A stretch of DNA of 64,000 nucleotides from Abditibacterium sp. (GTDB lineage: Bacteria; Armatimonadota; Abditibacteriia; Abditibacteriales; Abditibacteriaceae): NCBI GenBank assembly GCA_965199495.1, contig CBDASK010000003.1, positions 1,056,001 through 1,120,000 of the forward strand, given 5' to 3'. Numbering within the stretch: position 1 is the first letter of the stretch; each line of letters opens with the position of its first letter. Under the pieces are notes generated by a model. That model was not told where the DNA came from. It saw nothing but the letters and a program-made list of their open reading frames with translations, and searched no databases. Shown piece after piece: positions 104 through 63,786 of the stretch. The position numbers and the translations under genes were made by a program.

Positions 104-195
104 ACCGATAGAAAGCGATAAGCAACCTCGGTGCAGCCACGGAGCGCCGATAAGAACGTCAGGCGCAGTCAAACGTCTTTTAAAGCATCAAAATT

Positions 196-1068
196 ATGCA
201 AACCATTCAGCCCACGCAGCACTCCGGCAACAACGGCCACGCCACGCCGACCAACGATAAGTTAGTCAATGCCGATGCTTCCAAACATTCGACGGTGACC
301 AACAAACCGACCAAAAACATGAATTTGAAATTGCTCGTCTGGCGCCAGAGCGGCGCCAAAGACAAAGGCAAAATGGTCGAATATCGCGCCAACGACATTT
401 CGCCCGACATGAGCTTTTTGGAAATGCTCGATGTCGTCAACGAGCAGATGATTCACAAGGGCGAAGAACCCATCGCCTTTGAACACGATTGCCGCGAAGG
501 CATTTGCGGTTCGTGCGGCCTGATGATCAACGGTCTGGCTCACGGCCCCGACGCGGGAACCACGGTTTGTCAGTTGCACATGCGCAGTTTCAAAGATGGC
601 GATGAAATCGTTATTGAGCCGTGGCGCGCGCGCGCGTTTCCCGTGATTCGCGATCTGGTCGTTGACCGCAGCGCGTTCGACCGCATCATCGCGGCGGGCG
701 GTTATATTTCGGAAAACACCGGCAACGCGCCCGACGGCAACGCGATTCCCATCGGCAAAGATGTCGCCAACGACGCGATGGATGCGGCAGCGTGCATCGG
801 TTGCGCAGCGTGCGTCGCGCAGTGCAAAAACGCGTCGGCGGCTTTGTTTACGTCGGCCAAAGTCGCGCACTTGGCGCTCTTGCCGCAGGGCGAACCCGAA
901 CGCATCGAGCGCGTTTTACGCATGGTCTCGCAAATGGACGCCGAAATGTTCGGCTCCTGCTCCAACGAGGGCGAATGCGAAGCGGTCTGCCCGAAAGAGA
1001 TTAAAATGGTCAACATTTCGCTGATGAACCGCGAATATGAACGCGCGATTCTGTCGAACAAAAAGTAA
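196..1068 (+). CDS. sdhB: Succinate dehydrogenase/fumarate reductase iron-sulfur subunit
   Basis: [11 protein letters not shown] 2Fe-2S motif, [11 protein letters not shown] and [13 protein letters not shown]e-S motifs; true start may be near 319. Confidence 0.95.
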
Positions 1069-1080
1069 GTTGGGAAAAAG

Positions 1081-1118: not shown

Positions 1119-1148
1119 CGTTTACAAAAACGATTGGTGTTCTTGTAT

Positions 1149-1332: not shown

Positions 1333-1334
1333 TT

Positions 1335-2204
1335 CTATCCGTTACCACCGCCCCGTCCGCGACCCTGACCGCCGTTCCGACCACCTTGCCCTTGAGCTTG
1401 GCCGCCGTTCCAACCGCCTTGGCCATTTTGCGATTGCGCGGGCGAGAAAACTGCGGTGGGGCCGCCAATCGCCAGCACGTCGTTATTCAAGATACCGACG
1501 AGGGTCAAAAACGCTTTGATGCGAGGCGTTGTCGAATAATGGATTTTGGAATCCAAGTCTTTAAGCGCTTTGGTTTGGCGGTCGTTTTCGGCTTGCACGG
1601 CGTTTTCGTAAGCCGCGAAAGTTGTGGCGACTTTGGAATCGGCGGCGGCTTCGATGCCGGTATCGGCGACGTTGGCGGGAGCCACGACGGGCGCTTGCAG
1701 CGCCGTGGCTGCTGTTTGGGCCAGTTGCAACAACGTCACGCGCGCCTTGTTTTGCTCGGCGACATAAGCGACGATGGCATCTTGCACATCGAAATCGGCG
1801 ATGCCCGCCGCGTTCATCATTTGCTTCATCGCATCGGCGGTATTACGGCTGTTACGCCCGCCGCGTCCGCCGCCGCCGCCTTGGCCAGTCTGCCCGGCTT
1901 GGCCCATCAAACCCGCATCTTGCGCTTTTTGCAACGCATTCGGGTCGTTCGGATCAATGCCAGCCTGTTGTAATCTTTGGTTGATAACCTGCTGGACGGC
2001 GGCGCGTTGTTCGGGCGTCATGGACTGCATACGTTCTTGCAAGCGCGCCTGAAAATTTTGCGCGCGCTGTTCGGGCGTGAGATTTTCGTTGCCCTGCTGA
2101 CGCTGGTCTTGACGAGCGTCACGATTGGGACGCGCATTTTGCGCCTGAGCGGTTAAGCCCGTCATCAAGAGTGCGCCCAATGCGCAGTAAAGAATTTTAT
2201 TCAT
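1335..2204 (-). CDS. Hypothetical secreted protein, Gln/Gly/Asn-rich
   Basis: 289-aa ORF with signal peptide (MNKILYCALGALLMTGLTAQA) and low-complexity G/Q/R segments; follows the DUF1559 gene. Confidence 0.8.
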   Translation of the reverse strand: MNKILYCALGALLMTGLTAQAQNARPNRDARQDQRQQGNENLTPEQRAQNFQARLQERMQSMTPEQRAAVQQVINQRLQQAGIDPNDPNALQKAQDAGLMGQAGQTGQGGGGGRGGRNSRNTADAMKQMMNAAGIADFDVQDAIVAYVAEQNKARVTLLQLAQTAATALQAPVVAPANVADTGIEAAADSKVATTFAAYENAVQAENDRQTKALKDLDSKIHYSTTPRIKAFLTLVGILNNDVLAIGGPTAVFSPAQSQNGQGGWNGGQAQGQGGRNGGQGRGRGGGNG

Positions 2205-5579: not shown

Positions 5580-6118
5580 GCGTTATAGTCTGACGCCGTG
5601 GCTGCATCGAGCGCGCGATTGACAGCGCGCCACAAATTGAGACCAAATAGGGCAACGCTTGACAGGAACCATATCAAGAATACCCACATGAACGGAACGA
5701 GATGAATAATCATAAACAAAAAATTCGAGGTGAAAGCACAGAGTAGAGATGTTGACGCCGTGAACCAGAAAGTCTGGCGCCCAACCGAACGAAAGAAACG
5801 CGATTTGAACGGATTTTTCGCATCATTAACCGGAGCGTAAATTCCTGTGACGATGCCTACCAGTCCACCCATAATAGCGAGAATAAAGCTACTTCCACCG
5901 CCCAGCCAGAGCAAAATGCCAAGGAGAGCGCTATCGTCGAGTTCGAGAAGACCACGTTCAGCTTCGGGAACAGGAGGCGTTGGATGTTGAACAATAAATA
6001 GGATAAGACTGGCCATTGGGATTGCCACGGGCAACGCCCACAACAACGCGCCCGCCGCGCCCCAACCCAATACGCGACGCGCGAGCGGAAACCACCAAAC
6101 GTTGGAGTTGCGATTCAT
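5576..6118 (-). CDS. Hypothetical membrane protein
   Basis: About 4 hydrophobic segments; stop overlaps the pnkp start (GTGA); ATG start chosen at 6118. Confidence 0.7.
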   Translation of the reverse strand: MNRNSNVWWFPLARRVLGWGAAGALLWALPVAIPMASLILFIVQHPTPPVPEAERGLLELDDSALLGILLWLGGGSSFILAIMGGLVGIVTGIYAPVNDAKNPFKSRFFRSVGRQTFWFTASTSLLCAFTSNFLFMIIHLVPFMWVFLIWFLSSVALFGLNLWRAVNRALDAATASDYNA

Positions 6119-6201
6119 CGAAACGATTATCGCCAATCGCTTGGGCAGACGCAAGCACTTGAGTGCGAAAGAGCAATGCTCTTACTTATGGGCTGTTTCG
6201 T

Positions 6202-7058: not shown

Positions 7059-7877
7059 TTATTTCGGCTGATATTGACGCGTAATTTCATATAACATCAC
7101 GCCCGCAGCCACACCGACGCCCAGCGAATCTACGCTCGCGTCAACCGGAATGTAGGCCAATTGCTGGCAGGCGTGAAGCGCGCGCGGCGAAAGTCCGCTG
7201 CGTTCGTCGCCCAGCCAGAGCCACAAATCGCGTGGATAATCCAAAACGCGATAATCATGGGCGCCACGCAGTGATGTGCCCAGCCAAAACGGACGATAGC
7301 GCGCGCGAAATCGAAAAACTTCGTCCCAACTGGCGCGCACCAGAGTTTGTTGCCAGAACGCGCCCATGCTGGAACGCACCGTCGCTGGGTGGAAAAAGTC
7401 CACATCATCGCCGACCGCGATGCAGCCACGGGCACCGGCAGCTTGTGCGGTGCGCAGCATCGAACCCAAATTGCCGGGTTTGCGAACCGATTCGAGCGCC
7501 AACCAAACGCCGCTATGCGCGCCCAATTCGGATAAATTCATCGTTTGGCTCGACGCAATACCGATTAAACCCTGCGGGTCTTCGCCCTGCGCCAATGTTT
7601 GCAAAGTGACGGCATCGGTGACGAAATGGGGAATGCCACGAATGCGTGTTTTTGCCACAAGACGCCCGGAAATTGCCGTCATTGGCGAGGCGTAAAGCAG
7701 CGTTTGCAGCGCGTCGTTTTGTAGCGCCAACTCGATGTTGCGGGCGCCTTCGATGAGAAATTGGCCGCGCGAGTCGCGGTGGCTGCGTTGGCGCAAAAGT
7801 GCGGTCTGAGCGATTAATTCGTGTGGAGCGGGCATCGCTTTAGCGCGCGGAACCTCCTTGTTGAGATGGCGTTTCAT
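7059..7877 (-). CDS. TrmH/SpoU (SPOUT) family RNA methyltransferase
   Basis: FLIEG substrate-binding domain; LESVRKPGNLGSMLRTA, LGDERSGL and SLGVGVAAGVMLYE SPOUT motifs. Confidence 0.92.
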   Translation of the reverse strand: MKRHLNKEVPRAKAMPAPHELIAQTALLRQRSHRDSRGQFLIEGARNIELALQNDALQTLLYASPMTAISGRLVAKTRIRGIPHFVTDAVTLQTLAQGEDPQGLIGIASSQTMNLSELGAHSGVWLALESVRKPGNLGSMLRTAQAAGARGCIAVGDDVDFFHPATVRSSMGAFWQQTLVRASWDEVFRFRARYRPFWLGTSLRGAHDYRVLDYPRDLWLWLGDERSGLSPRALHACQQLAYIPVDASVDSLGVGVAAGVMLYEITRQYQPK

Positions 7878-8481: not shown

Positions 8482-9233
8482 TTGCCTCCCAACCGCAACC
8501 GAAGGAGCCAATCGTGGAGCGCCGGTTTAATATCAATTTTGGGTGGCAACGGCGAATTTTGTTCCGCGTTTTGCAACCGCTCGCGCAGACGCGCATATTG
8601 CGCTTCGTAGAACGGCAAATCAGCGTTTTCCAGCGTTTGACGTTCGGCGCCGTTGAGCTTTAAATCAATCAAATCGTTGATCGTCGCGCTGCCAAACTCT
8701 TCGTTTAAACGCGGTAAATTCGCTTCGAGTTTTCCGGTTTGCAGCAGATGCGCGCCGGTTAAAAGCACGCGATAAATATAAAGCAGTGGCTTGACGCGCG
8801 GCGGTGAATCTTTGAGGAAAAGTCGCCATTGATTATCGGCAAATCCCAGATAATGTTTGGCAAATTTGCGATTCAAACTATCGAGCGCAATCGCTTTCAA
8901 TTCCTCGTGCGCGGGCGAAGTGACGACGACCAAAGGCGAACACAATTGTTCCAAAGCGTAGCCGGAATCTTTGGCGATTAAAGCGCAAAATTTGCGCGCT
9001 TCGTGGCTGACGATGTCCCATTCCAAGCCATCGCGGATTTCGGCGACTTCGATGGTTTCGCGCGGCGGAAACAGCCCGACCAAATCGCGAAGCGGCGCGA
9101 CGTGGCTGCCGCGCAGGTCGTAATCGGAATCGGGCGACGAAAATCCGTAAAGATGCGCGCCCGAAACCGTGACAAAGAGCGCATCGGGAATATGAAGTTT
9201 GGCGGCGGCAGATAATCGCGGATCGAGTTGCAT
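8478..9233 (-). CDS. RlaP/YcgL-type DNA polymerase beta superfamily nucleotidyltransferase
   Basis: SGAHLYGFSSPDSDYDLRG catalytic motif; KPLLYIYRVLLTG helix; start set at 9233 because the upstream extension is a REP. Confidence 0.9.
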   Translation of the reverse strand: MQLDPRLSAAAKLHIPDALFVTVSGAHLYGFSSPDSDYDLRGSHVAPLRDLVGLFPPRETIEVAEIRDGLEWDIVSHEARKFCALIAKDSGYALEQLCSPLVVVTSPAHEELKAIALDSLNRKFAKHYLGFADNQWRLFLKDSPPRVKPLLYIYRVLLTGAHLLQTGKLEANLPRLNEEFGSATINDLIDLKLNGAERQTLENADLPFYEAQYARLRERLQNAEQNSPLPPKIDIKPALHDWLLRLRLGGN

Positions 9234-9346: not shown

Positions 9347-9814
9347 CTATTTTTGCCACGCCAAAACTTGCGCGGTGAGTTCTGGTAGCGAACCGACGAC
9401 TTGAACATCGGGCCGCTCTAATTCGAGTTGGATAATTACGTCTTCATAGCGCGCATAATCGGGTTGCGCGGCGACAAATAGCGGTTTGGGCTGGCCATTT
9501 TCGTCGCGCCAGTGCGCCCACGAACCCAGTTCGTAAAGCGAAATTAGGCACAACGCGCCCGCAGGAAACCAGAACGAAATCGCGCTCGAATTGCGCAAAC
9601 CGTCGTGTTCCCAGCGAATCTGTTCGCGCAAAGCCTGCGGGTCGAGCGCGTTATACGTTTCGCGGCGCGGGTTGAGCAACGTTAAATCGGTTTCGCGCAA
9701 ATCGTTGGCGAATTCGGTTTGCCAATCGGGCGCGCCAGTGATGGCGCCGGCGACGAACAGACTATTGTCGAATGCAGCCACGGGCACGAGTTCAGGTGGA
9801 CGATAGAGTTTCAT
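9347..9814 (-). CDS. Nucleoside 2-deoxyribosyltransferase-like protein
   Basis: LFVAGAI...DWQ, LNPRR, QIRWE and ISLYELG motifs of the NDT-like family. Confidence 0.85.
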   Translation of the reverse strand: MKLYRPPELVPVAAFDNSLFVAGAITGAPDWQTEFANDLRETDLTLLNPRRETYNALDPQALREQIRWEHDGLRNSSAISFWFPAGALCLISLYELGSWAHWRDENGQPKPLFVAAQPDYARYEDVIIQLELERPDVQVVGSLPELTAQVLAWQK

Positions 9815-9954: not shown

Positions 9955-11346
9955 TTACAATCTCTTAAAAACCGCCATTTGCGACGGCGCGCCCCAATTC
10001 TCATCTTCCGGCCCCAACGGACGAACTTCGACTTGGTAACCGTAATCCACAGCCACGCGCCCGGCCCAATCCGCGAATTCGGCGCGATCCCACTCGAAGC
10101 GATGATCGCCGTGACGCATTTTTCCGGCGGGCAAAGATTCCCAGTGCGCGTTATATTCGCGATTGGGCGTGGTCAAAACTATGGTTTGCGGGCGCGCCCA
10201 TTCCCACACCGCGCGCTCGAACGCGGGCAAACGCGCCGCATCGAGATGTTCGACGACTTCGACCAGAGCCGCCGCATCGAAATTTTTCAGGCGGTCGTCA
10301 CGATACGTTAAAGCGCCGTGCAGTAAAGTCAAGCGTTCGCGTTTGAGCGGCGCCATGCGTTCGAGGTGCAGCTTATCCGCAGCCACGTCGAGCGCGCGGT
10401 GGCTGGCGTCCACGCCAATAATGCGCTCGAACTGCTTTTCGTCTAACAATCCGCGCAGCAATCGGCCTTCGCCGCAACCCAAATCCAGCACGCTTTTCGC
10501 GCCCGATTTTTTCAGTTCGTCCAACACGGCGTCCAGCCGAATTTGGTGTAGCGACACGGCTTTTTCGGTCGGCGCGTCGGCTTCATCGGGCGCATCGGTT
10601 TCGTCGGCGGTTTCGGGCGCCAAACGCGCCAATCGTTCCAGCGCCGAATTAATCAATTTGCGCTGGCGCTTGAGATAACGCGCCGCGATAACTTCGCGCA
10701 TCGGATGATTTTCCAGCCAACCGGCGCCGCGCTTGAGCAATTTTTCGACCTCGTCTTCGCCGATAAAATAATGTTTGGAGTCGTCCAAAACCGGCAGCAA
10801 AACATACAAATGAGCCAGCAAATCGCTGAGCTTTACGTTGCCGCGCAAAGCCAACGACGCGCACGGCGCCGCGCCCCAATCGAATTTCGGATCGAGAACG
10901 GGAATCTCCAATTCGACGGTATAGCCCAACGGCTCGAACAAATTGCGCACGAAAGAGCCGTCGCCCGAACAGGGAATCGCGTCCACGCACGCAACTAAAT
11001 CGAGAACGGTTTGAGCGAGTTCGGGCTTTTCTTTCGATTGGCCGCCCAGCGCCGAACGCAAAACCTGCGCGATGGCGACGCTGGCGAACGAACCAGCCAC
11101 GTAGGGCCGGTCGTTGACGTATTGCGCCAAGGGGCCGCTATCATTTTTGTTTTTGCCGCGCACCAGCGCAATCGGATCAACTTCCAACAATAGGGCGAAA
11201 TCGCACTGATTTTCGGTCGCGACCGGATAAAACGCGTGCGCGCGCCCAAACGATAAATCGAACGATTGAGCTTTATCGGGATTTTTGGCGAGCAGATAAC
11301 CGATGTCGGTCGCGGGCGAGTGCGTCGTCGAAATTTGCAGCAACAT
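9955..11346 (-). CDS. hen1: 3' terminal RNA ribose 2'-O-methyltransferase Hen1
   Basis: N-terminal ligase-activating domain (PATDIGYLLAKNP, YVNDRPY); methyltransferase motifs VLDLGCGEG, EVVEHLD, TTPNREYN, RHGDHRFEW. Confidence 0.97.
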   Translation of the reverse strand: MLLQISTTHSPATDIGYLLAKNPDKAQSFDLSFGRAHAFYPVATENQCDFALLLEVDPIALVRGKNKNDSGPLAQYVNDRPYVAGSFASVAIAQVLRSALGGQSKEKPELAQTVLDLVACVDAIPCSGDGSFVRNLFEPLGYTVELEIPVLDPKFDWGAAPCASLALRGNVKLSDLLAHLYVLLPVLDDSKHYFIGEDEVEKLLKRGAGWLENHPMREVIAARYLKRQRKLINSALERLARLAPETADETDAPDEADAPTEKAVSLHQIRLDAVLDELKKSGAKSVLDLGCGEGRLLRGLLDEKQFERIIGVDASHRALDVAADKLHLERMAPLKRERLTLLHGALTYRDDRLKNFDAAALVEVVEHLDAARLPAFERAVWEWARPQTIVLTTPNREYNAHWESLPAGKMRHGDHRFEWDRAEFADWAGRVAVDYGYQVEVRPLGPEDENWGAPSQMAVFKRL

Positions 11347-11381
11347 TGGAAGCACAGTTTGAACGATAACGCGAACCAACG

Positions 11382-11509
11382 CTTTTAATTTCACGCAGAG
11401 AGGGAGAGAGAATGAAGAACACTTAAAACTAAAGAAATTGTTACTCTCTTTATTTTTTGGTTTTTCTTCATTCTCTCTGCCTCTCTGCGTCTCTGCGTGA
11501 AATTAAAAA
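11382..11509. repeat. Purine/pyrimidine-arm long palindrome (family C) between divergent hen1 and ubiD
   Basis: CTTTTAATTTCACGCAGAGA... / ...TCTCTGCGTGAAATTAAAAG. Confidence 0.8.
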
Positions 11510-11574: not shown

Positions 11575-13074
11575 ATGGCTCACGACATTCCTTCGTTTCT
11601 GCGCGAAATCGAGAAAATTAATCAACTCCAAAAAATAGACGCGCCGGTTTCGCTCGACCTCGAAATCAGCGAAATCGCCGACCGCGTGATCAAAAAAGCT
11701 GGCCCCGCGCTTTTATTTCGTAACGTGAAAGAAAACCCCGACGTGCCGGTGGCTATTGGTTTGTTCGGCTCGCACGAACGATTGGCGCTGGCGCTGCACG
11801 ATTCGCCGCAAAATATCGCCGGGCGCATCACGGATTTAATTTCGACGCGTCCGCCCAATTCGCTGGTCGGCATGGCGAAAATGGGTTTACAAATGTTGCC
11901 GACGATTTCGAGTCTGGGCGTCAAGCGCGGCAAATCTGGCCCGGTGAAAGAAGTGATAATGAAGGGCGACGACGTGGATTTATCGAAAATTCCGGTTTTG
12001 AAATGTTGGCCCGACGATGGCGGGCCGTTCATCACTTTGCCGATGGTTTTCACGCATAATCCTAATAATGGGCGGCGCAACGTCGGGATGTATCGCGTGC
12101 AGATTTACGATAAAAATACGACGGGAATGCACTGGCAAACCCACAAAGTCGCCGCACAGCACGCGCGCGATGCCGCCGCCAAAGGTCAAAATATCGAGGC
12201 GGCGGTTTGTCTGGGCGGCGATCCATGTTTGCCGTTTTGCGCTCTGGCGCCTTTGCCCGAAGAGATTGACGAAATGCTCTTCGCCGGATTTTTGCGCGGC
12301 AAACCGGTCGAATTGGTTCAATGCGAAACCATTGATGTGCAAGTGCCCGCCGATTGCGAATACGTCATTGAGGGATTTTTAACGCCCGGCGAATTGCGGC
12401 CCGAAGGCCCGTTTGGCGATCATACCGGCTATTACACGCCCATCGAGCCATATCCGGTTTTTCATGTGACCTGCGTGACGCAACGGAAAAAGCCGATTTA
12501 TCCGGCGACAATCGTCGGAATTCCGCCGATGGAAGACGGTTATCTCGGCAAAGCTGTCGGCACGATCTTTCTGCCTTTAATCAAAACGCAGGTGCCCGAA
12601 ATCGTGGATATGCACTTGCCCGTCGAAGCGACGTTTCATAATTTGGCTTTGGTCTCGATTAACAAACGCTATCCAAATCACTCTTATAAAGTGATGCACG
12701 CCTTATGGGGTCTGGGCCAATTGATGTTCTCGAAGATGATTATCGTGTTCGACGACGATGTGAACGTGCATAATCTAAGCGAAGTCATCTGGCGATTGAG
12801 CAATAATATTGATCCGGCGCGCGATGTTCAAATCGTGAAAGGCCCGGTGGATTCGCTCAATCACGCGGCGCCCCTCGTCGGGTTCGGCAGCAAAATCGGC
12901 ATTGACGCGACCAAGAAATGGTCGAGCGAAGGCCACGCGCGCGAATGGCCCGATGTCGTCAAGATGAATGCAGCCACGGCGGCGCGCGTGGACGAAATGT
13001 GGAGCAAACTGGGGCTGGGCGAGAATCCCGGCAGCCCGTCCAAAGACGGGCATATCGTGGGGCCGATGCCGTGA
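11575..13074 (+). CDS. ubiD: UbiD family decarboxylase (menaquinone biosynthesis decarboxylase, MqnL-like)
   Basis: RNVGMYR, EGPFGDHTGYY, PPMED and SKIGIDAT motifs. Confidence 0.9.
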   Translation: MAHDIPSFLREIEKINQLQKIDAPVSLDLEISEIADRVIKKAGPALLFRNVKENPDVPVAIGLFGSHERLALALHDSPQNIAGRITDLISTRPPNSLVGMAKMGLQMLPTISSLGVKRGKSGPVKEVIMKGDDVDLSKIPVLKCWPDDGGPFITLPMVFTHNPNNGRRNVGMYRVQIYDKNTTGMHWQTHKVAAQHARDAAAKGQNIEAAVCLGGDPCLPFCALAPLPEEIDEMLFAGFLRGKPVELVQCETIDVQVPADCEYVIEGFLTPGELRPEGPFGDHTGYYTPIEPYPVFHVTCVTQRKKPIYPATIVGIPPMEDGYLGKAVGTIFLPLIKTQVPEIVDMHLPVEATFHNLALVSINKRYPNHSYKVMHALWGLGQLMFSKMIIVFDDDVNVHNLSEVIWRLSNNIDPARDVQIVKGPVDSLNHAAPLVGFGSKIGIDATKKWSSEGHAREWPDVVKMNAATAARVDEMWSKLGLGENPGSPSKDGHIVGPMP

Positions 13075-29465: not shown

Positions 29466-29816
29466 ATGGCTATGACTTTAGAATACGGGAAATGCGCTTC
29501 GTGCGGGCGCGAAAATCCCAAAGCTATCGAACAGTGTCGCGGTTGTAACGCGGTTTTGCCGTGGGTCAAAGGCGCCGCGCCCAAGGCAGCCACGGCGGGC
29601 AACCATTCCTCTGGCAATGCTAAACCCAAAGTCGGTTTGGGCGACATCGCGTGGGGCGGCATGGCCGTGGCTTTGGGCGGCGGCGCGATTTTCGTGTTGG
29701 GAATCGTGCTGTGGTGCGGCAACGTCTTCGGATTTCTGCCGACCGTGCCGGGCGCGGGTTACATCACGATGGCAATCGGTGGCGCGATTTGGCGTTTCGG
29801 CAGTTCGATGGAATAA
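29466..29816 (+). CDS. Small zinc-ribbon membrane protein
   Basis: CASC...CRGC plus two C-terminal TM helices. Confidence 0.75.
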   Translation: MAMTLEYGKCASCGRENPKAIEQCRGCNAVLPWVKGAAPKAATAGNHSSGNAKPKVGLGDIAWGGMAVALGGGAIFVLGIVLWCGNVFGFLPTVPGAGYITMAIGGAIWRFGSSME

Positions 29817-43914: not shown

Positions 43915-44053
43915 TGTTTGTCCTCGATTCTCGCAGCAGTTTATTCGCGAAACCGCCGCCGTGGCTGCTTGTGGGCACCGTTTTATTCAGAAAATGGCGT
44001 GCGAAGTTTGATAACCTTATCTGGCATCCATTTCCCGGAGAAACCTAAATATT

Positions 44054-46346: not shown

Positions 46347-46512
46347 GCGAGATGCCTCATCTCATTCGGTGCGCTCGCCCGATGCAGCCACGGCGCATTG
46401 GATGGCGCCTCTCATTTCATTTGTAAAATCGTTGTGCGCGGGCGCGTGGCTGGTCTACCGTATCGCTGCGGAAATAGTAAGATTAATTGAAGGAGTGTCG
46501 CGGGAATAAACA

Positions 46513-52534: not shown

Positions 52535-53674
52535 TCAATCCAAATCCCACACCAAAATCGCGTCGCCGCCGCGCACAAACAAGCGTTTGCCATCGGGCGC
52601 AAAGAGCAGACCGGGCGCCACGGTAAGATTCGTTTTTGCCTGACTGCCCAGCGAGCGCGTTAAGCGGATTGCCCCTGTTGCGCTATCGATCAGGAAAACG
52701 CGGCCCTGATAATATTGGTAAGCGGCTACCGTTCGGCCATCGGGCGAAAAAATGGCGTCGCAAACCGAAGCGTTGAAAACGTCCGTGCCACCCATCGCGG
52801 GCGCTTTGATTTGCCAGAGCAATTTTCCAGTCTGGATGTCGAAACAGCGCACCGGCGCGTAAGTGGAAAAATCGCTTTCTCCGAAAGTGTTGCTCACATT
52901 GCCAGACACGACCAGACGTTTGCCGTCGGGAGCGAATTTTACGCTGGCAACCGTATCGGCTTTGAAGCCTTGGCCACCCGGCAAGCGCCGCACGAGTTTT
53001 CCATTGTCGGCTCGATGAATTTCGATGCGATCTTTGATTTTGTGGTCTCCGATATGCGCCACTAATTTTCCATCGGGCGACCAAGAGATGTCTGCCGAAT
53101 AGGGCCGACCATTTTGCCACTGAGTTTTCACTTGCCCATTGCGGGCATCAACGATGCAAACAGCTTTGTCAACGGAAAGCGCAACAGCGCGTCCGTCCGG
53201 CGAAAACGCGGCTCCCGAAGCGTAGTGAGGAAATCGCCACAAAGTATTGCGCGTGGCTGCATCGTAGAGCGCCCACGTCTCGCCCTGGCGCGTGAAACCG
53301 ACTGTTCTTGCATCGGGCGAAAATGCCAGGGCGTAGATATCAAAACCGCCGAGAAATCCCGTTTTATCCCGTTTATAAACCGGAGCAATTGAAGGAAGTG
53401 CTGTGCCGATGCGAGCGTTCCACAGATAAACCGTTCCGCTCCCTTTGAGCCAGCCGCCTTTGCCATCACGCGAACCTGCTGCCGCCAAAATTTCACCGTT
53501 GTCCGACAAGGCCATCGAACGAATTGTGGTGTCGGAAGTCGTCGTCCAAACTTGCGGCAAGCCCAACGCGCCGCGCACGAGTTGCGGCCCCCACATCACA
53601 GCCACGGCGAAGAGGCCGACCAAAATTGGCGTCGCCCACAACCATTTTTCGCCGCGCGTCCACTTGCGTTTCAT
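52535..53674 (-). CDS. WD40-like beta-propeller membrane-anchored protein
   Basis: N-terminal TM helix; repeated FSPDG motifs; terminal VWD. Confidence 0.85.
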   Translation of the reverse strand: MKRKWTRGEKWLWATPILVGLFAVAVMWGPQLVRGALGLPQVWTTTSDTTIRSMALSDNGEILAAAGSRDGKGGWLKGSGTVYLWNARIGTALPSIAPVYKRDKTGFLGGFDIYALAFSPDARTVGFTRQGETWALYDAATRNTLWRFPHYASGAAFSPDGRAVALSVDKAVCIVDARNGQVKTQWQNGRPYSADISWSPDGKLVAHIGDHKIKDRIEIHRADNGKLVRRLPGGQGFKADTVASVKFAPDGKRLVVSGNVSNTFGESDFSTYAPVRCFDIQTGKLLWQIKAPAMGGTDVFNASVCDAIFSPDGRTVAAYQYYQGRVFLIDSATGAIRLTRSLGSQAKTNLTVAPGLLFAPDGKRLFVRGGDAILVWDLD

Positions 53675-54391: not shown

Positions 54392-55456
54392 ATGAAACTT
54401 CCCCTCGCTTTTGCTTTGCTCGCGACCTGCGCGCCGATTTTTGCCGCGCACGCGCAACCCGAAATGACCGACGATGCGCCCGCCGTGGCTGCTAACGGCG
54501 CGATGCCAATGATGCCGCAAAATGTGCCCGCCGTGGATGCGTATCGCTGGAAATTTCAGCCGCCGCTTGGCTCGCGTTGGACGATGCGCACGTTTACGCG
54601 CACGCAACTCGAAGAGACGATTCCCGCGCTGGCGGGCGAACCGTCGCACAAAATGGAGATCGGCGGTTTCACGCGCATGGTCGCCGATTACGACGTGATC
54701 AACCGCGACGAGTTTGGCGCCAGCACGATTCGCGTGACCTATCGGCAATTGACGCTCGATAACAAAATCACCGTTGATGGCAAAGTCGTGGACGCGACAC
54801 CTTATAAACAGGGCGCGGTGCAGGGCGTGAATGGCGCTTCTTATACGATTAAACAGGCGCCCGATGGCAAAGTTTGGGGCATTGACGGATTGGACAAAGT
54901 GCAAGACCAAATTATCAAAGCCAGCACGGCGGCTGATCCAGCCACGCGCGCGGCGCTGGCCAAGTTGACGCACTCGCTGGCCTCGGCGGATGTGCTGCGC
55001 AAAACCATCAACGCCTCGACCGATAGCTGGCCCAAATATCCGGTTCGCGCGGGCGAAACTTGGACTTACGCTTTTAACGCGCCCTCCGATTTGCCGATGC
55101 AAATCAGCATGGAAAGCCATCGCACGCTCAAATCGCTCGATGCCGACATCGCTTCGGTAGGCGAAACCGCCAACTACGATCAGGGTTCGCTCAAACTCGA
55201 TTTGCCGATGGGTGGCGATGAGATGAGTGGCAACGCTCAAATGTCGCTCAAAGTGAACGATCTCAAAGGCACCATCAGTGGTTACACGCGTGTGCAGCGC
55301 AGTAGTGGAATCGCGTTGCAAACGTTGGTTAATCAGACGATGACCGGCGTTTTCCAGGTCAAAGTGCCCGCCGAGGCGGGCGGAGCGCCAATCAATGCGC
55401 GCGTGCCGGTGAAAGTTTCGGGCAACACCAATATCGTCATGGAGCCGCGCGGCTGA
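54392..55456 (+). CDS. Secreted protein (DUF6263-like)
   Basis: Signal peptide AHA-Q; PKYPVRAGETW motif; beta-rich. Confidence 0.7.
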   Translation: MKLPLAFALLATCAPIFAAHAQPEMTDDAPAVAANGAMPMMPQNVPAVDAYRWKFQPPLGSRWTMRTFTRTQLEETIPALAGEPSHKMEIGGFTRMVADYDVINRDEFGASTIRVTYRQLTLDNKITVDGKVVDATPYKQGAVQGVNGASYTIKQAPDGKVWGIDGLDKVQDQIIKASTAADPATRAALAKLTHSLASADVLRKTINASTDSWPKYPVRAGETWTYAFNAPSDLPMQISMESHRTLKSLDADIASVGETANYDQGSLKLDLPMGGDEMSGNAQMSLKVNDLKGTISGYTRVQRSSGIALQTLVNQTMTGVFQVKVPAEAGGAPINARVPVKVSGNTNIVMEPRG

Positions 55457-55662: not shown

Positions 55663-56694
55663 ATGTTAGCCATCACTTTACAGGAGCCGGGCCGCTTCGA
55701 GCGCGTGCAAAACCCGTTCGATGCGGGCGCCGTGGCTGCTTCGCACGCGCGGGTGCGCGTGCATCGTATCGGCGTGTGTGGCACCGACTGGCACGCGTTC
55801 GCCGGACGCCAACCGTTTTTTTCGTATCCGCGCATTTTGGGCCACGAACTGGGCGTCGAAGTCCTCGAAGTCGCGCCCGATTCGATTAACACGCGCGGCA
55901 TCAAAGTTGGCGACCGATGTTGCGTCGAGCCGTATCTCAATTGTGGGCATTGCATCGCCTGTCGGAGCGGCAAAACCAACTGTTGCGAAAACCTGCGGGT
56001 TCTGGGCGTTCACACCGACGGCGGTATGCGCGAAACGTTGGACGTGCCAATTGACAAACTGCACCGCGCCAATGATTTGAGTTTCGATCAACTGGCTTTG
56101 GTCGAAACGCTGTGCATCGGTGCGCACGCCGTGCAGCGCAGCCACGCCGAGGCGGGCGAAACCGTTTTGGTCGTTGGCGCCGGGCCGATTGGATTGGCGG
56201 TCACGCAGTTTCTGAGCGTCGCGGGCGCCAGGATTTTGGGGATGGACGTTAGCGACGAACGATTGGAATTTTGTCGCAACGTCGCCCCTATCGCGGGCAC
56301 GATTAACCCGAATCACGGCGATGCGACCGCGCAAATCCGCGCTTTGAACAACGGAGAACTGCCGACCTGCGTGATGGATGCGACCGGCCATGCGGCTTCG
56401 ATGGAGCGCGCGTTTGAATTGGCCGCGCACGGTGGCCGCATCGTTTTCGTCGGCCTGTTTTCCGGCGACGTAACCTTTAGTGATCCCAATTTTCACAAGC
56501 GCGAACTGACGCTGCTGAGCAGTCGCAACGCCACAGCGCCCGATTTCGAGCGCACGATAGAATTGATTCAAGCCGGACAAATTAACACGACGCCGTGGAT
56601 TACGCACCGCATGAAACTGGGCGAAGTCGCGCAATGTTTCGCCGCGATGCAGGGCGCGCCGGGTTTGGTTAAGGCGATGATCGAAAACGATTAG
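55663..56694 (+). CDS. Zinc-binding alcohol dehydrogenase (L-galactonate dehydrogenase YjjN-like)
   Basis: GVCGTD, GHE, CxxCxxC, GAGPIG, HKRELTLLSSRNA. Confidence 0.88.
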   Translation: MLAITLQEPGRFERVQNPFDAGAVAASHARVRVHRIGVCGTDWHAFAGRQPFFSYPRILGHELGVEVLEVAPDSINTRGIKVGDRCCVEPYLNCGHCIACRSGKTNCCENLRVLGVHTDGGMRETLDVPIDKLHRANDLSFDQLALVETLCIGAHAVQRSHAEAGETVLVVGAGPIGLAVTQFLSVAGARILGMDVSDERLEFCRNVAPIAGTINPNHGDATAQIRALNNGELPTCVMDATGHAASMERAFELAAHGGRIVFVGLFSGDVTFSDPNFHKRELTLLSSRNATAPDFERTIELIQAGQINTTPWITHRMKLGEVAQCFAAMQGAPGLVKAMIEND

Positions 56695-57648: not shown

Positions 57649-58297
57649 TTTATCGCAACCGCTTTTTGATGACGCCCCGAACTGTCCGGCGCACCCGGCG
57701 GTAAACATCGAATACGAGCCTCACGGCGACGGCGGTTTGGGTTCGTGGCAGATGGAATATTTTCAGTTCGCCTCGCACACCGGCAGCCACGTCGACGCGC
57801 CGCGCCACAAAATCGCGGGCGCGCAGACGATTTCGCAGATGCCGCTCGAAGCGTTCGCGGGCGACGCGGTTTTGGCCGATTTGCGCGCGTTGGCGCCCAA
57901 CGCCGAAATCAACGGCGAAATGCTGCGTTGCGCGTTGCCGACAGATGTGCGCGGACGCATCGTGCTGATCGCGACGGGTTGGGGACAAAAGCGCGCCAAA
58001 GACGAATTATGGCTTTATCAATCGCCGCGCCTCAACGAAGACGGCGCGGCGTGGCTGGTGCAAGCGGGCGCTAAGGCGGTTGGCATAGACCATTTTTCCA
58101 TCGGCGGCGCACAGGAACCGGGTAACGCGCGCACCCACGAAATTTTGTTGGGCGCCGCAATGTGGATTTTGGAAGAATTGCGCTTTCCCGACGAAGTTTT
58201 CGGTTTGAGTTGGCCGCAAACCCTGATGGCGCTGCCAATTAACGTGGCGGATGCGTCGGGCGCGCCGTGCCGCCCGGTTTTGGTTTTGCGAGATTGA
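57635..58297 (+). CDS. Cyclase family protein (kynurenine formamidase-like)
   Basis: HTGSHVDAPRH metal motif; GID; GAPCR. Confidence 0.88.
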   Translation: MKFIDLSQPLFDDAPNCPAHPAVNIEYEPHGDGGLGSWQMEYFQFASHTGSHVDAPRHKIAGAQTISQMPLEAFAGDAVLADLRALAPNAEINGEMLRCALPTDVRGRIVLIATGWGQKRAKDELWLYQSPRLNEDGAAWLVQAGAKAVGIDHFSIGGAQEPGNARTHEILLGAAMWILEELRFPDEVFGLSWPQTLMALPINVADASGAPCRPVLVLRD

Positions 58298-60991: not shown

Positions 60992-61014
60992 GGCGAATCA
61001 ATGGGGCACGACTA

Positions 61015-63786
61015 TTATTTCGTCAATTCCGGCGCGTCCACGATAACGCGGCCCTGCGCATCCATATCAATCGGGCTGGCGGCGGGCGTGCCACGTTGGG
61101 GCGCGTTTTGCTCGCGCCGATATGAGAGCCATTTGCGACCATCCGGCCCATCGAAAACCGCCAGATGTCCGCCCTCGAACACTTTGCCGCGCGCGTCTTT
61201 CGTCCAAGGGCCAAGCGGGCTGTCCGCCGTAGCGACGCCCGTCCAGTAGCTATTATCAAAGGTTTCGGCGTGAAATAGCACGTATTTGTCGCCGATGCGC
61301 TCGACCCACGGGCCTTCGAGATAATTCGGCTTCTGGCCCAATAAAGTGCCCGCGCTGTCACAGCTCACAATTTTCGTTTCCGGGCCGAGCCATTTCACCT
61401 CGCCTTTGTTTAAATTCGTCAAATCAATTTTGCGAATAAAAATATCATATTTCGGCATCACGGCCCACGTCGCGCCATCTTTATCGGCGAACAATGTGGT
61501 ATCGCACGCGCCGTCTTTAATGTAAGTGATATTGCGATACGGCCCAGTGATGGTATCAGCCACGCCGACGAAGGCATAGCCCGCCGCGCCCCAGTTGCCC
61601 GCCGGATTGTATTCGGGTTTGCTCCAATTGTCGGCGGTAAAAATCAGATAAAAGTGGCCGTTCATCTTGTGGATTTCCGGCGCCCAGAAGCGATGTTTGT
61701 AGGGACTATCGGCGGGTAAATCGGCGGATTTGACCAACCAATTTTCCGGCTTCCACGTCTTCAAATCCTTGGACGAAAACAGTTGAATACCCGGCGACGA
61801 ACCGTGATTGGGCAAGTTCATCCGCTTATCTTCGCGGTTAGCGAACGGCCACATCGTGAAGGTCATATAGTAGGTGTCGCCCTCTTTAATAATCGCCGGG
61901 TCGCGCACTTCGCGGCGCAGGACGCCTTCGTTATCGGCGTATTGAAAATCGAACGGATTGGGAATTTGCGCGACGGCTTTGACGCCGTTGACGCGAAAAC
62001 CACTTTGCAAACCGGTGATGTCGCTGGCATTTTTGCCCGCGACCGCAATCGCCGTGTTCGCCGCGCCCAAACGCTGGATGACGTTGCCCGCGAACGTCAA
62101 ATTCTTGGCGCGCCCGACATCTACCAACGCGCCGATATTGTAATGATCGGCGCCGCGCCGATTCTCGACTTGCTGGGCGTTGAGGAACTTATTATCCCGA
62201 AAAACCGCGCCTTCGACGCCATCCAAAACCACGTTGACGCCATCGTTATTGGCGAAGGTATTATTTTCGATAGTGATATTGCGGTGCCCGCGCGCATCGG
62301 GCGCATCGCCCGTTCCGAGCAACGTCAAAACGCCCGCTTGCGCGTTCCACGGGCCAGTCGTCGTGGTGCCGCAATGCGCGAAAGTGTTGCCGCGAATCGT
62401 CACGTTACGCGCATAATTGCCCTCGCCCCACCACAGTTCCGGCCCCATCACCAGACCGGCAATCGAACTGCCGTCCACCAGATTATTTTCGACCAAACCA
62501 TCGCGCGCCTTTAATAAAAGTCCGCGCGCGCGATGATCTAATATCGTATTGTTGCGCAAAACGTAACCGTCGCCGGTCTGATCGAGATTGGAAACCACAT
62601 CGCCTTCCTGCGCCGCCAGAGCTTTGTCGAGCGTTAACTCAAAGAAGAATTTGTTGTCGCGAAAATGCGGAAACTCGGTTTCAATCGGCGCCATCAAACC
62701 GTCGGTCAACGTTTTGATGGCGGTGACGACGGCTTCTCCGCCGGGCACACCGTTTTTGCGCACCCACGTCAAATGGTCGCCAATTGCGTAGGGCGCGCCG
62801 CCCCACAATCTCATGCAAACCAGGGTGTTGCCCTCGACCTGCTGCACCATCTGGTATTCGCCGTGAATCGCGATGCCATCGTCGGGCATGCGAGTGAACA
62901 TCGAATTTTGGATCGTCGGCCCGACTTTGGCGCCCGCACTATGAAAACCATCGGCGTTCTCGCTCATCAACGGGCTGGCCGTGGCTCCAATGGGCAACGG
63001 GCCGGGCTTGGCGCTGATGCGATTGTAATGGTTGCTGCCGCCGCCAGTCTCGAACCAGCCGAAACCGCCCGAAAACTCCGCGCTCACGTCCTCGATATTC
63101 ATCTTTGTGCAACTGTCTACATGAACGCCCGTCCCGCCGCGCCCGCGCATCGAAGTTAGGTCGCCGACCTCGATTTCTTTGCCGAACGGATTATCGAACT
63201 TGACGAGAAAACGCCGCTCGCCCATGCGCTCGACGCCCGCGCTGCCGTAATCGTAGGTGTTGTTTTTCAGGCGGCGCGTCACGCGGTCGAAGATGTAGTA
63301 AGTCGTGCGCGCATCGAACTTTTTCGCGTCGTCGAGCGTGACCGGATAGCCGTCGTCAATTTGCAGCTCGAACGATTTGCGGTCGTCGGCGAGTGCAGCC
63401 ACGGCGCCCTGCGTGAACGGAATCGTGGCGTTACGAACCGTCGCGCCGCGAAAAGTCACGTTCTGGCAATTGCCGAAATAAACGCCGGTTTTAGAGTTGT
63501 CCTCCATCAAAAACGTCGCGCCAGTCGCATCAATCTCGAAGTTCTTGAGATCACGAAATTCCAGATTAGAACCTTGCTTCGATTCGGAAATACGGTAAAC
63601 GCCAGCGGGAATCACGATTTTTTTCTGGCCCGCTTTGTAGGCGTCCATAATCCTCTGCTGCAACAATTCGGGATGCTGAGTCGAGATCGTCATCGGCGGC
63701 TTTCCCTGTGCCAGAGCGCGCGAAATTAGCGGCGTCGCGCCGCTCAGAAGTAGAACGGCGCCCAGGGAAATGGAATGAAAATTCAT
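61015..63786 (-). CDS. Secreted right-handed beta-helix (GH110-like) plus GH43-family fusion
   Basis: Signal peptide; NADGFH and PDDGIAIHG beta-helix motifs; RDPAI, WAPEI and YLEGP five-bladed propeller motifs; start at MNFHS. Confidence 0.85.
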   Translation of the reverse strand: MNFHSISLGAVLLLSGATPLISRALAQGKPPMTISTQHPELLQQRIMDAYKAGQKKIVIPAGVYRISESKQGSNLEFRDLKNFEIDATGATFLMEDNSKTGVYFGNCQNVTFRGATVRNATIPFTQGAVAALADDRKSFELQIDDGYPVTLDDAKKFDARTTYYIFDRVTRRLKNNTYDYGSAGVERMGERRFLVKFDNPFGKEIEVGDLTSMRGRGGTGVHVDSCTKMNIEDVSAEFSGGFGWFETGGGSNHYNRISAKPGPLPIGATASPLMSENADGFHSAGAKVGPTIQNSMFTRMPDDGIAIHGEYQMVQQVEGNTLVCMRLWGGAPYAIGDHLTWVRKNGVPGGEAVVTAIKTLTDGLMAPIETEFPHFRDNKFFFELTLDKALAAQEGDVVSNLDQTGDGYVLRNNTILDHRARGLLLKARDGLVENNLVDGSSIAGLVMGPELWWGEGNYARNVTIRGNTFAHCGTTTTGPWNAQAGVLTLLGTGDAPDARGHRNITIENNTFANNDGVNVVLDGVEGAVFRDNKFLNAQQVENRRGADHYNIGALVDVGRAKNLTFAGNVIQRLGAANTAIAVAGKNASDITGLQSGFRVNGVKAVAQIPNPFDFQYADNEGVLRREVRDPAIIKEGDTYYMTFTMWPFANREDKRMNLPNHGSSPGIQLFSSKDLKTWKPENWLVKSADLPADSPYKHRFWAPEIHKMNGHFYLIFTADNWSKPEYNPAGNWGAAGYAFVGVADTITGPYRNITYIKDGACDTTLFADKDGATWAVMPKYDIFIRKIDLTNLNKGEVKWLGPETKIVSCDSAGTLLGQKPNYLEGPWVERIGDKYVLFHAETFDNSYWTGVATADSPLGPWTKDARGKVFEGGHLAVFDGPDGRKWLSYRREQNAPQRGTPAASPIDMDAQGRVIVDAPELTK

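Follow-up and report, generated by a model that had tools for sequence, protein, structure and literature searches.

A strand-counted, over-represented word in an Abditibacterium clade points to an undescribed self-DNA recognition system in gene exchange or repair

Introduction

Chi sites of RecBCD/AddAB are non-palindromic, over-represented, oriented and skewed towards the leading strand, and GTAG-family REP/REPIN elements are intergenic hairpins of 20–40 bp which spread by insertion and flank RAYT genes. The Chi count of E. coli and single-strand recognition are cited in the excerpted text of PMC1939737. Sequence-specific DNA uptake is described in two families, Neisseriaceae and Pasteurellaceae (excerpts of PMC2817400 and of bioRxiv 10.1101/2025.10.24.684340), and PMC3630211, likewise in excerpt, is a further source on the DUS and USS words. 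ComP-type reading of DUS takes place mainly on duplex DNA according to excerpts of PMC12061091, where a strand preference of single-stranded DUS in gonococci is also stated. Uptake by USS is reported as orientation-independent in the excerpted PMC1939737.

Here we describe a word found in the window, i.e. the whole 64,000-nucleotide stretch of Abditibacterium sp. DNA that was analysed; no earlier account of it was found in the literature searched. As far as the excerpted sources describe DUS and USS, it resembles them in being a non-palindromic word of 9–12 bp with 0.4–1 copies per kb, equal strands and an even spread, in its substitution origin, tripeptide enrichment, frame bias and strict core with graded flanks, and in that foreign DNA is poor in it, a related species has a dialect and overlapping inverted pairs are in excess. 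Its sequence is unrelated to theirs and its host belongs to another phylum. Its excess of about 17–60-fold compares with 200–1,000-fold for DUS/USS in these excerpts, the nulls being different.

Results

An earlier note on the window had counted by hand about 34 exact copies of GCAGCCACG. This count is right: 34 matches (19 on the plus and 15 on the minus strand) lie where the note had placed them (Table 1). About one copy had been expected by chance, and dinucleotide shuffles (n = 100) indeed gave a mean of 0.93 and a maximum of 4. Gene calls agree with the placement of copies inside mutS2, nadC, aroC, gltB and a UbiD-family gene as well as with the three intergenic positions. The span also holds 58 copies of the 8-mer CAGCCACG and 38 of the 11-mer CAGCCACG[G/C/T]CG. 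The 9-mer is a portion of a larger graded motif with the consensus (A/T)GCAGCCACG(G/C/T)CG and the strict core AGCCAC(G): positions 3–8 (AGCCAC) are strict and position 9 almost so, while (A/T)GC is preferred before and (G/C/T)CG after. No conserved longer flank surrounds the 9–12 bp copies in G000, the genome of the window, which belongs to the Abditibacteriaceae, or in its relative G011.

Table 1 Exact copies of GCAGCCACG in the window (ORF and gene limits in window positions, with strand)
Positions	Strand	Location
133..63403		Span with 34 exact copies, a sample of the chromosome-wide motif
133..141	+	Intergenic, upstream of sdhB-like gene (196-1068)
1704..1712	-	ORF 1335-2165(-)
5597..5605	-	ORF 5576-6154(-), without a gene call
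7422..7430	+	RNA methyltransferase gene 7059-7877(-)
9101..9109	-	ORF 8478-9233(-)
9774..9782	+	ORF 9347-9814(-)
10379..10387	+	hen1
12970..12978	+	UbiD-family decarboxylase gene
22466..22474	-	ORF 20930-23272(-)
26597..26605	-	mutS2
27384..27392	+	mutS2
28298..28306	+	mutS2
28621..28642		Close inverted pair (28621 -, 28634 +), start of ORF 28562/28631-29422(+)
29586..29594	+	ORF 29472-29816(+)
30931..30939	+	ORF 29997-30986(-)
32895..32903	+	nadC
33289..33297	-	nadC
35374..35382	-	FAD oxidoreductase gene 35251-36606(-)
36492..36500	-	FAD oxidoreductase gene 35251-36606(-)
38974..38982	+	aroC
41042..41050	+	1129-aa ORF 40129-43518(-)
42283..42291	-	1129-aa ORF 40129-43518(-)
43960..43968	-	Intergenic
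44723..44731	+	Oxidoreductase gene 44054-45232(+)
46384..46392	+	Intergenic
49342..49350	-	gltB
51572..51580	+	gltB
53252..53260	-	ORF 52535-53674(-)
54484..54492	-	ORF 54392-55456(+)
55731..55739	-	Zn-dependent dehydrogenase gene, also holding copy 56138
56138..56146	+	Zn-dependent dehydrogenase gene, also holding copy 55731
57783..57791	+	Cyclase/arylformamidase-like gene
63395..63403	+	ORF 61015-63786(-)

The note had allowed that the enrichment might be confined to the window or vanish under codon-preserving nulls; neither is the case. Genome-wide there are 1,783 copies of GCAGCCACG, 917 on the plus and 863 on the minus strand of chromosome C3, with 1 and 2 on contigs C1 and C2. The predicted CDS contain 1,618 copies, as compared to 96.0 ± 8.5 after synonymous shuffling within genes (20 shuffles, maximum 116) and 177–206 under a codon-pair-preserving null (5 draws), which corresponds to a 17-fold and an about 8-fold excess. 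All six frames as well as intergenic DNA are used, most copies falling in two frames (Ala-Ala-Thr; x-Val-Ala-Ala). Ala-Ala-Thr is spelled GCA GCC ACG in 555 of 1,431 tripeptides, GCA making up 5.8% of Ala codons. Measured against the codon null, no 8-mer is more enriched than CAGCCACG (2,838 vs. 281), whose density round the chromosome is uniform (223–287 per twelfth). The leading-strand share suggested for checking by the note is 0.505–0.535, and 0.515 ± 0.03 for words of the same composition, so that no replichore bias exists; unlike KOPS, the motif has no polarity to ter (0.51; GGGCAGGG, also in this genome, reaches 0.90). Intergenic density (0.18–0.21/kb) is about half the coding density (0.41/kb), and 33 of 44 close inverted pairs in G000 are coding.

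Same-strand copies avoid one another up to a distance of about 1 kb, while opposite-strand copies do not. Below 500 bp, direct pairs of the 11-mer reach 0.05–0.25 of expectation, and at 1.5–2 kb they reach 0.96; inverted pairs are near 1 beyond 40 bp. The ratio of direct to inverted pairs is 0.32 (CI 0.26–0.40) for the motif and 0.79 (CI 0.56–1.11) for a USS control, a value with which some orientation effect in USS is possible; at 60–300 bp the control gives 0.65 (CI 0.40–1.06), an interval which includes 1. A Haemophilus-type Chi word had no direct-pair deficit in the control loci, at low counts. Among 835 frequent 9-mers, pooled direct pairs amount to 1.43 for non-motif words and 0.36 for motif words. 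The deficit is found inside genes (sense 0.13, antisense 0.31), across genes (0.40) and on both replichore strands, and it recurs in G011. Furthermore, sites that have another copy on the same strand no more than 700 bp away are kept in the sister genome in 24/40 and 24/41 cases, compared to about 0.78, whereas an opposite-strand neighbour has no effect (171/231 vs. 148/188). No 5′/3′ asymmetry was seen. Judged from these genomic distances, each copy is shown to render a same-strand copy redundant over about 0.4–0.5 kb on both sides, the other strand being independent. In toy models, a duplex rule satisfied by any site depletes direct and inverted classes alike, while a per-strand rule with a tract of 400–500 nt reproduces the observed curve. 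Since a polar rule of first encounter, reaching about 1 kb, also gives a rough fit to most bins, the spacing by itself does not tell uptake from intracellular repair.

Alignment columns at motif sites are free of gaps in 94/98 (G011), 112/120 (G004) and 38/42 (G006) cases, the backgrounds being 0.98, 0.98 and 0.96, and the exact 9-mer was found at none of them in outgroup orthologues (G006: 0/38 ungapped sites). As read from these alignments, the copies arose by substitution and not by insertion. Silent third positions within the motif are conserved between G000 and G011 in 225/249 cases (0.90; expected 0.68). The 8-mer occurs 2 times on C1 and 6 times on C2 (16 and 42 expected), and at 0.22/kb in comM-integrated islands with flanks at 0.80–0.91/kb; plasmid-sized contigs and islands are thus motif-poor.

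Conservation in related genomes, another check named by the note, turned out to be narrow: the motif is enriched in only 3 of the 201 phylum genomes searched. CAGCCACGBCG occurs 2,113 (G000), 1,776 (G011) and 720 (G004) times and at most 134 times in each of the other 198; of the 27 family genomes, the remaining 24 have 12–94 copies each. A ComEC tree built from all 13 genomes of the genus joins the three in a single clade (100/100), and all comparative support for the motif comes from this single evolutionary origin. The dialect of G004 is longer; 90/94 of its pairs lie between genes, and it recalls the DUS dialects and inverted pairs described in excerpts of PMC3630211. The reverse complement of this long form starts with GTAG, its inverted pairs are mostly 32–33 bp apart, and a GTAG REP present in the sister clade has a left arm similar to it. 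Coding copies lie in gapped columns in 11/35 cases for the long form and in 3/36 for the G000-type form. Long-form singles, too, keep coding copies off their own strand (5 against 17.6 expected; 13 against 17.5 on the opposite strand), and so they carry the same signal.

The search for competence genes proposed in the note found comEC in 13/13 and comEA in 12/13 genus genomes, dprA in 5/5 and full-length comM in 4/5 genomes examined, and a pilB-pilT-pilC-pilD-pilin operon. Three comM 3′ fragments ahead of the intact comM mark islands stacked at this gene, which is a mobile-element target in transformable bacteria according to excerpts of PMC11441513. These competence genes are just as present in the 10 motif-less members of the genus. 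Pairwise identities of ComEC, ComEA, DprA and SSB revealed no clade-specific divergence, and no receptor or reader protein, ComP- and ComN-type included, was identified. As regards a sequence-specific minor pilin receptor like ComP or the predicted ComN, all three motif genomes (3/3) carry a tandem duplicate of a gene for a PilX-like pilin of 1.3 kaa, of which G006, G008 and G009 have one copy each. This pilin is hypervariable, and its predicted model matches ComZ weakly (Foldseek E 0.087).

Discussion

The motif, known here from genomes, points to an undescribed self-DNA recognition system acting in gene exchange or repair. The idea of an undescribed, lineage-specific DUS-like signal put forward in the earlier note holds at the level of the genomic signature (abundance, both strands, substitution, silent sites, dialect) and agrees with the scarcity in plasmid-sized contigs and islands and with intact competence genes. 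The motif differs from DUS/USS in two features. In G000 its density is higher within genes than outside them, its close inverted pairs being mostly coding and without terminator association, and its redundancy is strongly strand-specific (0.32 vs. 0.79 for USS), so that the DUS/USS expectation of one site per fragment in any orientation appears not to apply, opposite-strand copies being non-redundant.

Our preferred reading, to which we assign a probability of roughly 0.45, is a predicted role as a transformation signal that is read per single strand. The motif would be a DNA-level self signal, accumulating by point mutation and biased gene conversion (molecular drive) via natural transformation, as with DUS and USS. 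Unlike there, the reading step would count each strand separately: a putative sequence-specific protein would favour entry, protection or recombination of a word-bearing incoming single strand, and the advantage would saturate over some 0.5 kb of single-stranded DNA. A fragment would offer two additive routes, one per strand, and both orientations would therefore fill independently. Against this reading stand the negative receptor search, the competence genes shared with motif-less relatives, the genic density and coding inverted pairs, and, in the excerpted literature, duplex recognition of DUS (PMC12061091) and orientation independence of USS (PMC1939737). Slightly less confidence still is due to the wider proposal of a third, independently evolved self-DNA recognition, outside Proteobacteria and with single-strand reading rather than a pilin on duplex DNA, in which molecular drive, at DNA entry or broken-end processing, would tile each strand with the word at a reach of about 0.5 kb, through a novel putative reader in a lineage without RecBCD/AddAB.

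The main rival, unlikely but serious, is a polar Chi-like signal for intracellular recombinational repair. After random, non-fork-linked double-strand breaks a translocating nuclease/helicase would trim the ends up to a correctly oriented copy, and copy-bearing alleles would survive and convert those without a copy; since left and right ends need opposite orientations, both strands would carry the word without replichore skew. Like Chi, the motif has a non-palindromic core of 7–8 bp, is over-represented, oriented or strand-specific by genomic proxy, and scarce in foreign DNA. The redundancy is orientation-specific and the polar model fits most bins, but it overshoots at the shortest distances (0.2–0.3 vs. 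0.06–0.14); the missing 5′/3′ asymmetry need not, by a rough argument, appear. Unlike Chi, the motif lacks leading-strand skew, and a RecBCD/AddAB-type reader was not found in the motif clade (completeness: G000 95%, G004 92%, G011 87%). An AddA-like helicase is present in 10/10 motif-less and 0/3 motif-bearing genomes of the genus, with no tblastn orthologue in G000. The same query found no AddA in 14 motif-less genomes of other genera, so the absence may be ancestral. RecQ-family genes exist in 5/5 genomes, and a 1,421-aa PD-(D/E)XK nuclease with an SF1B (Dna2/Upf1-like) helicase occurs in 3/3 genomes with the motif and in 0/10 of the others in the genus; nevertheless, in G011 it is frameshifted and its first ~680 residues are missing, copies 42–45% identical exist in the motif-less G016 and G017, and the family is widespread, with weak defence-system hits. 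Distinctly less probable is an abundant oriented site for a DNA-structuring or replication-restart protein (nucleoid, segregation, priming) with a benefit saturating per strand. Uniform density, even spacing and conserved silent sites agree with it, and HIP1 of cyanobacteria, also a hyper-abundant short word conserved past coding need, is argued in excerpts of PMC5861425 to serve chromosome structure. HIP1, in the same excerpts, is a palindrome tied to methyltransferase sites, whereas the motif is asymmetric and strand-counted, with no matching methylase found. With a structural protein bound to the duplex, inverted neighbours should be depleted as well, and priming or segregation signals predict the replichore bias which GGGCAGGG has and the motif lacks; no candidate protein emerged. 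Because, as the toy model suggests, a duplex-bound protein would hardly ignore opposite-strand neighbours, the plain nucleoid-protein site, one of two options in the earlier note, is the less convincing one.

A REP/RAYT-type selfish element or its remains, possibly as seed of the signal, is improbable: the G004 long form is indeed intergenic, inverted-paired, GTAG-containing and, by its gapped columns, partly insertion-like, but the copies of G000 and G011 are short, coding, substitution-derived and do not mark RAYT loci, the RAYT-like gene of G000 is flanked by its own, different REPs, and no hairpin covariation was seen around the motif. Nick-directed mismatch repair acts bidirectionally, per strand, over about 1 kb, which the per-strand ~1 kb action of the motif matches; MutL exists in 5/5 genomes and one beta-class methyltransferase is common to the three motif genomes (85% G000–G004). 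A role of the motif in mismatch repair, as a methylation mark or for telling the strands apart, or a methylase driving it in the manner of HIP1, is nonetheless a shade more improbable still, as four-fold-site divergence from G011 is flat against site distance (0.99–1.03 ± 0.02–0.035; 28,926 sites), the motif is not a palindrome like HIP1, and the methyltransferase family is widespread (65–70% identical in unrelated lineages), which makes a clade-private 8–11 bp target unlikely. Codon or peptide bias together with generic purging of short direct repeats would suit the two frames that carry most copies. It is refuted by the codon nulls and by the direct-pair excess, not deficit, of other frequent 9-mers, and the use of six frames and intergenic DNA and the absence of enrichment from sister clades leave it a negligible chance.

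If such signals did arise a third time, in a deep-branching phylum, this would test whether molecular drive repeatably yields them, and motif-positive, dialect and motif-negative close relatives side by side make comparative gene hunting possible. If the repair reading were true instead, the motif would point to a Chi-like system without RecBCD/AddAB. Strand-specific spacing is a new and cheap diagnostic from genomes alone, here indicating one strand of about 0.5 kb as the selected unit; applied to DUS, USS, Chi, HIP1 and orphan hyper-abundant words, it could sort them by mechanism. In these genomes the word distinguishes native DNA from that acquired recently, and it may serve as a handle for transforming these bacteria.

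Abundance and shape of the motif

The over-represented 9-mer (core AGCCAC(G), with shorter 7- and 8-mer and longer 11-mer forms) is real, chromosome-wide, private to one clade and strongly maintained. The earlier hand count of about 34 copies in the window was exact in number and position (19 forward, 15 reverse), and the proposed background of about one copy agrees with a mean of 0.93 in 100 dinucleotide shuffles of the window. Nor is the word confined to the window. The window covers C3:1,056,001-1,120,000 in the source genome G000, an assembly of 4.81 Mb in three contigs. The chromosome (C3) holds 917 forward and 863 reverse copies, and the 25-kb and 65-kb contigs hold one and two. With our own gene calls (4,053 genes, 84% coding) 1,618 copies are coding, compared to 96.0 ± 8.5 after synonymous codons were shuffled within genes (20 runs) and 177–206 in five draws preserving codon pairs. 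The excess outlasts both nulls, which rule out a codon or peptide artefact as its cause. The word occurs in all six frames, and a further 154 copies lie between genes.

The motif is graded: AGCCAC is strict and the next G nearly so, with (A/T)GC preferred on the 5′ side and (G/C/T)CG on the 3′ side. Near-misses at motif positions 7–8 are reduced to 0.12–0.40 of the null. Coding DNA of G000 also avoids words with CGGCCG, CCGCGG, GCCGGC or CGATCG almost wholly relative to the codon null, and GATC stands at 0.44 of expectation.

Distribution among related genomes

The closest named relative of the window AroC is Abditibacterium utsteinense (80%); further Abditibacteriaceae and Armatimonadota names rank below. 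This cultured relative probably lies outside the motif-bearing clade. The 9-mer is enriched in 3 of 41 genomes, namely G000 (1,783 copies), G011 (1,411) and G004 (972), and the 11-mer in the same three (3/27 in the family, 3/201 in the phylum). In a ComEC tree of 13/13 genus genomes, midpoint-rooted for drawing only, these three form one clade with support of 100/100. They thus represent a single origin, and every correlation between a gene and the motif has n = 1.

De novo word searches in six motif-less sister-clade genomes (76–94 kb each) and three further motif-less genomes (6–23 kb each) gave only REP-like or tandem repeats; this dialect search was confined to the sister clades and to a small fraction of each genome. 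Inverted-pair scans yielded at least 120 loci from metagenomes and at least 118 from viruses, and among those listed five carry extra copies of the word. Two of the three inspected resemble local repeats or GC-rich chance, and none of those inspected matched G000 proteins. The third, a 13-kb viral contig (L562), carries nine 8-mer copies whose flanks are weak, and none of its proteins matches G000; these copies are possibly due to chance or to a phage from a motif-bearing host. A literature search at the level of titles and abstracts found no published description of the word, although k-mer survey tables may mention it; papers that contain the motif string were, among the matches listed, unrelated by title, and the Abditibacterium genome literature held nothing on repeats among the matches listed.

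Origin and maintenance of sites

Codon alignments with orthologues covered 470–560 kb of G004, G006 (motif-less) and G011, and about 80 kb of six others. Motif sites lie mostly in ungapped columns (94/98 against G011, 112/120 against G004, 38/42 against G006), a share slightly under the background of 0.96–0.98, and they fall at less conserved residues (0.56 versus 0.67 identity to G006). The exact motif is present at 61/94 aligned sites in G011, 24/112 in G004 and 0/38 in G006. Silent third positions within the motif are retained relative to G011 in 225/249 cases (0.90, expected 0.68); relative to G004 the value is only 0.67 (expected 0.58).

The 8-mer is below expectation on the small contigs (2 versus 16 and 6 versus 42), and in the 134-kb island stack right of the window its density is 0.22/kb compared to 0.80–0.91 in the flanks. 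The 130 CRISPR spacers of G000 (4.75 kb) contain one single 7-mer copy. Substitution origin, maintenance and scarcity in foreign DNA agree with Findlay and Redfield's account of USS and DUS (PMC2817400).

Same-strand copies are mutually redundant

Direct (same-strand) pairs of the 11-mer are strongly depleted, with observed/expected ratios of 0.05–0.06 at 40–150 bp, 0.14 at 150–300, 0.25 at 300–500, 0.45 at 500–750, 0.68 at 750–1,000 bp, 0.79 at 1–1.5 kb and 0.96 at 1.5–2 kb; on a log scale the deficit fades with a length of about 0.5 kb. Inverted pairs are at about expectation past 40 bp, and overlapping inverted pairs below 20 bp are in 4- to 10-fold excess. Three control 7-mers lacked this deficit. 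A comparison over 835 frequent 9-mers gives a pooled direct-pair ratio of 1.43 for the 814 that lack the core, so that generic purging of direct repeats fails as an explanation, and ratios of 0.36 direct and 1.01 inverted for the 21 that contain it. The deficit is present within genes (sense and antisense), across genes, including oppositely transcribed ones (7 versus 17.4 expected), on both replichore strands and in G011. It grows with site strength, strong–strong direct pairs at 30–300 bp numbering 3 versus 73.

Site turnover shows the same pattern. Among 419 aligned sites, those that have another copy within 700 bp on the same strand are kept in the sister genome at about 0.59 versus 0.78 (p 0.02 and 0.01, one per side), and a neighbour on the other strand makes no difference (p 0.3). 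This test is partly confounded, since sites close to a neighbour are more often weak; strength was entered in a logistic fit, where the 5′ term alone was clearly non-zero. Concerning direction of action, one test revealed no asymmetry and another disagreed between G000 and G011. Same-strand copies are thus mutually redundant and opposite-strand copies independent, a new feature of the word.

For comparison, USS were taken from one scan of 128 stretches around inverted USS pairs, of which 127 entered the filtering; removal of seven overlapping loci and of those below 3 kb or 0.3 USS/kb left 65 loci (1.0 Mb). The direct/inverted ratio at 60–500 bp, copies in close pairs excluded, is 0.79 (CI 0.56–1.11) for USS and 0.32 (0.26–0.40) for the G000 word, although the control is modest, since each of its loci was selected for containing a pair and the set draws on many species. 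With all copies of 54 loci at 80–500 bp both pair classes are depleted (0.44–0.64 and 0.50–0.66). A weaker orientation effect in USS may be compatible with this control. Of the earlier proposal of a DUS-like or nucleoid-protein site, the likeness to uptake sequences holds in most genomic respects, but its per-strand counting sets the word apart from USS.

A longer dialect in G004

The long form in G004, GA(C/T)ACCAGCCACGT(C/T)C, has 241 copies in 560 kb, often in inverted pairs 32–33 bp apart. In 400 kb, paired copies are intergenic in 90/94 cases and single copies coding in 43/72; within aligned genes 24/35 long forms are ungapped and 11/35 gapped. On small numbers, short copies are scarcer near single long-form copies of their own strand (5 versus 17.6 expected) than near those of the other strand (13 versus 17.5), and among themselves they show no mutual repulsion (16 versus 17.8). 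The dialect reads as a shifted specificity partly borne by a REP-like unit.

G000 itself has several GTAG-type REP families of about 90, 69, 35, 24 and 16 copies, one of them flanking its RAYT-like gene. In motif-less G005, loci L059–L062 contain, between genes, tandemly repeated GAGTGCGG(A/G)-type units in arrays that fold back on themselves, together with canonical REPIN-like pairs.

Competing readings

Toy birth–death simulations with hand-set, unfitted parameters were compared with the spacing data. A rule satisfied by one site anywhere on a double-stranded fragment depleted both pair classes, while a per-strand rule with tracts of 400–500 nt reproduced the observed curve. Together with the spacing this suggests that the selected unit is one strand or one direction. 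We tentatively favour a signal for transformation that is recognised while the DNA is single-stranded, at somewhat under even odds (about 0.45). A polar repair signal of the Chi type, which would rely on an undescribed enzyme, is the less likely reading, though it keeps appreciable weight. A polar first-encounter rule needs a reach of about 1 kb and is too high in the shortest bins. The word also fails the classical tests for Chi. The AddB–AddA pair occurs in all ten genus genomes that lack the motif and in none of the three that carry it, and no RecBCD/AddAB enzyme was found in the clade; but a search of the 14 genomes from other genera did not find AddA either. With ori and ter placed by the flip of GGGCAGGG, which we take to be the KOPS-like word of G000, the share of copies whose G-rich strand is the leading one is 0.505 (7-mer), 0.516 (8-mer), 0.535 (9-mer, p 0.004) and 0.509 (11-mer), like same-composition words (0.515 ± 0.03). 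KOPS or Chi as judged by skew is ruled out, GGGCAGGG reaching 0.90.

An oriented site for a structural or restart protein is improbable. That REP origin alone accounts for the word is more improbable still: the G004 long form resembles a GTAG REP found in the sister clade, so a REP may have seeded the signal, but in G000 neither the resident REPs nor the RAYT-like locus has any relation to the motif. A mark for methylation or mismatch repair is about as improbable and is placed marginally lower, as silent divergence from G011 is constant with distance to sites (28,926 four-fold sites), which counts against local repair fidelity. Other causes share the small rest. Hairpin recognition was rejected, neither covariation nor a folding excess being seen around the motif, as was a terminator role in G000, where no peak occurs downstream of stop codons.

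Despite the strong polarity of GGGCAGGG, just 50.1% of the coding DNA of C3 falls on the leading strand, with very little GC skew.

Competence, nuclease and pilin genes

The suggested search for competence genes found comEC in 13/13 genomes, comEA in 12/13, dprA in 5/5, full comM in 4/5 and secretins in 5/5; these genes are intact yet not clade-specific. NurA was not found in the five genomes searched. The comM 3′ fragments before the intact gene point to repeated integration at comM, described in PMC11441513 as a known integration target in transformable species.

A 1,421-aa nuclease with an SF1B helicase occurs in 3/3 motif-bearing and 0/10 other genus genomes. It is truncated and frameshifted in G011, present in motif-less G016 and G017, and patchy in the family. 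The PilX-like giant pilin is a tandem duplicate in 3/3 motif genomes and single in motif-less G006, G008 and G009. It is just 56–62% identical within the clade and had no PDB sequence match. About 48 homologues of this pilin, at 39–64% identity, suggest that the clade includes further genomes. Its predicted model (pLDDT 85) has top fold matches of Z ≤8.6, to a small beta-barrel and CBM-like folds, and a weak match to ComZ of Thermus, which PMC6561018 describes as a tip pilin that binds DNA non-specifically. By sequence, the pilus-tip genes of G000 appear strongly diversified. A 597-aa pilin-like gene of the operon is about 50–55% identical to that of G011 (median protein 90%).

Candidate readers are the nuclease-helicase, giant pilin, ComEC, ComEA, DprA, SSB and methylases, none of them established. 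A beta-class DNA methyltransferase, which may resemble pneumococcal DpnA, is common to the three motif genomes.

Features of G000 and their locations
Feature	Location	Strand	Remarks
Type IV pilus operon	C3:861,101-880,963		ends in two tandem 1.3-kaa PilX-like pilins
Three comM 3′ fragments	C3:1.121, 1.166, 1.197 Mb		precede intact comM at 1.254 Mb
comM island stack	C3:1,120,700-1,254,300		starts ~700 bp right of window; motif-poor; includes type I methylase and serine-recombinase-like ORF (by eye)
Nuclease-helicase	C3:4,111,365-4,115,630 (L326:5365-9630)	-	PD-(D/E)XK, four-Cys pattern, SF1B Dna2/Upf1-like helicase
Beta-class methyltransferase	C3:1,272,798-1,275,057		adjoins possible endonuclease gene
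SbcCD/Mre11-Rad50-like pair (by eye)	C3:80,384-86,483		divergent from mutL; orthologue of nuclease gene adjoins addA in motif-less G001
GTAG-type REP families (example)	C3:1,873,000-1,874,600
CRISPR array	C3:2,766,475 onward		131 repeats
Pnkp	window 3051-5579		RNA repair
Hen1	window 9955-11394		RNA repair
RNA 2′-phosphotransferase	window 33634-34176

Several ORFs lie between the Pnkp and Hen1 genes of the window.
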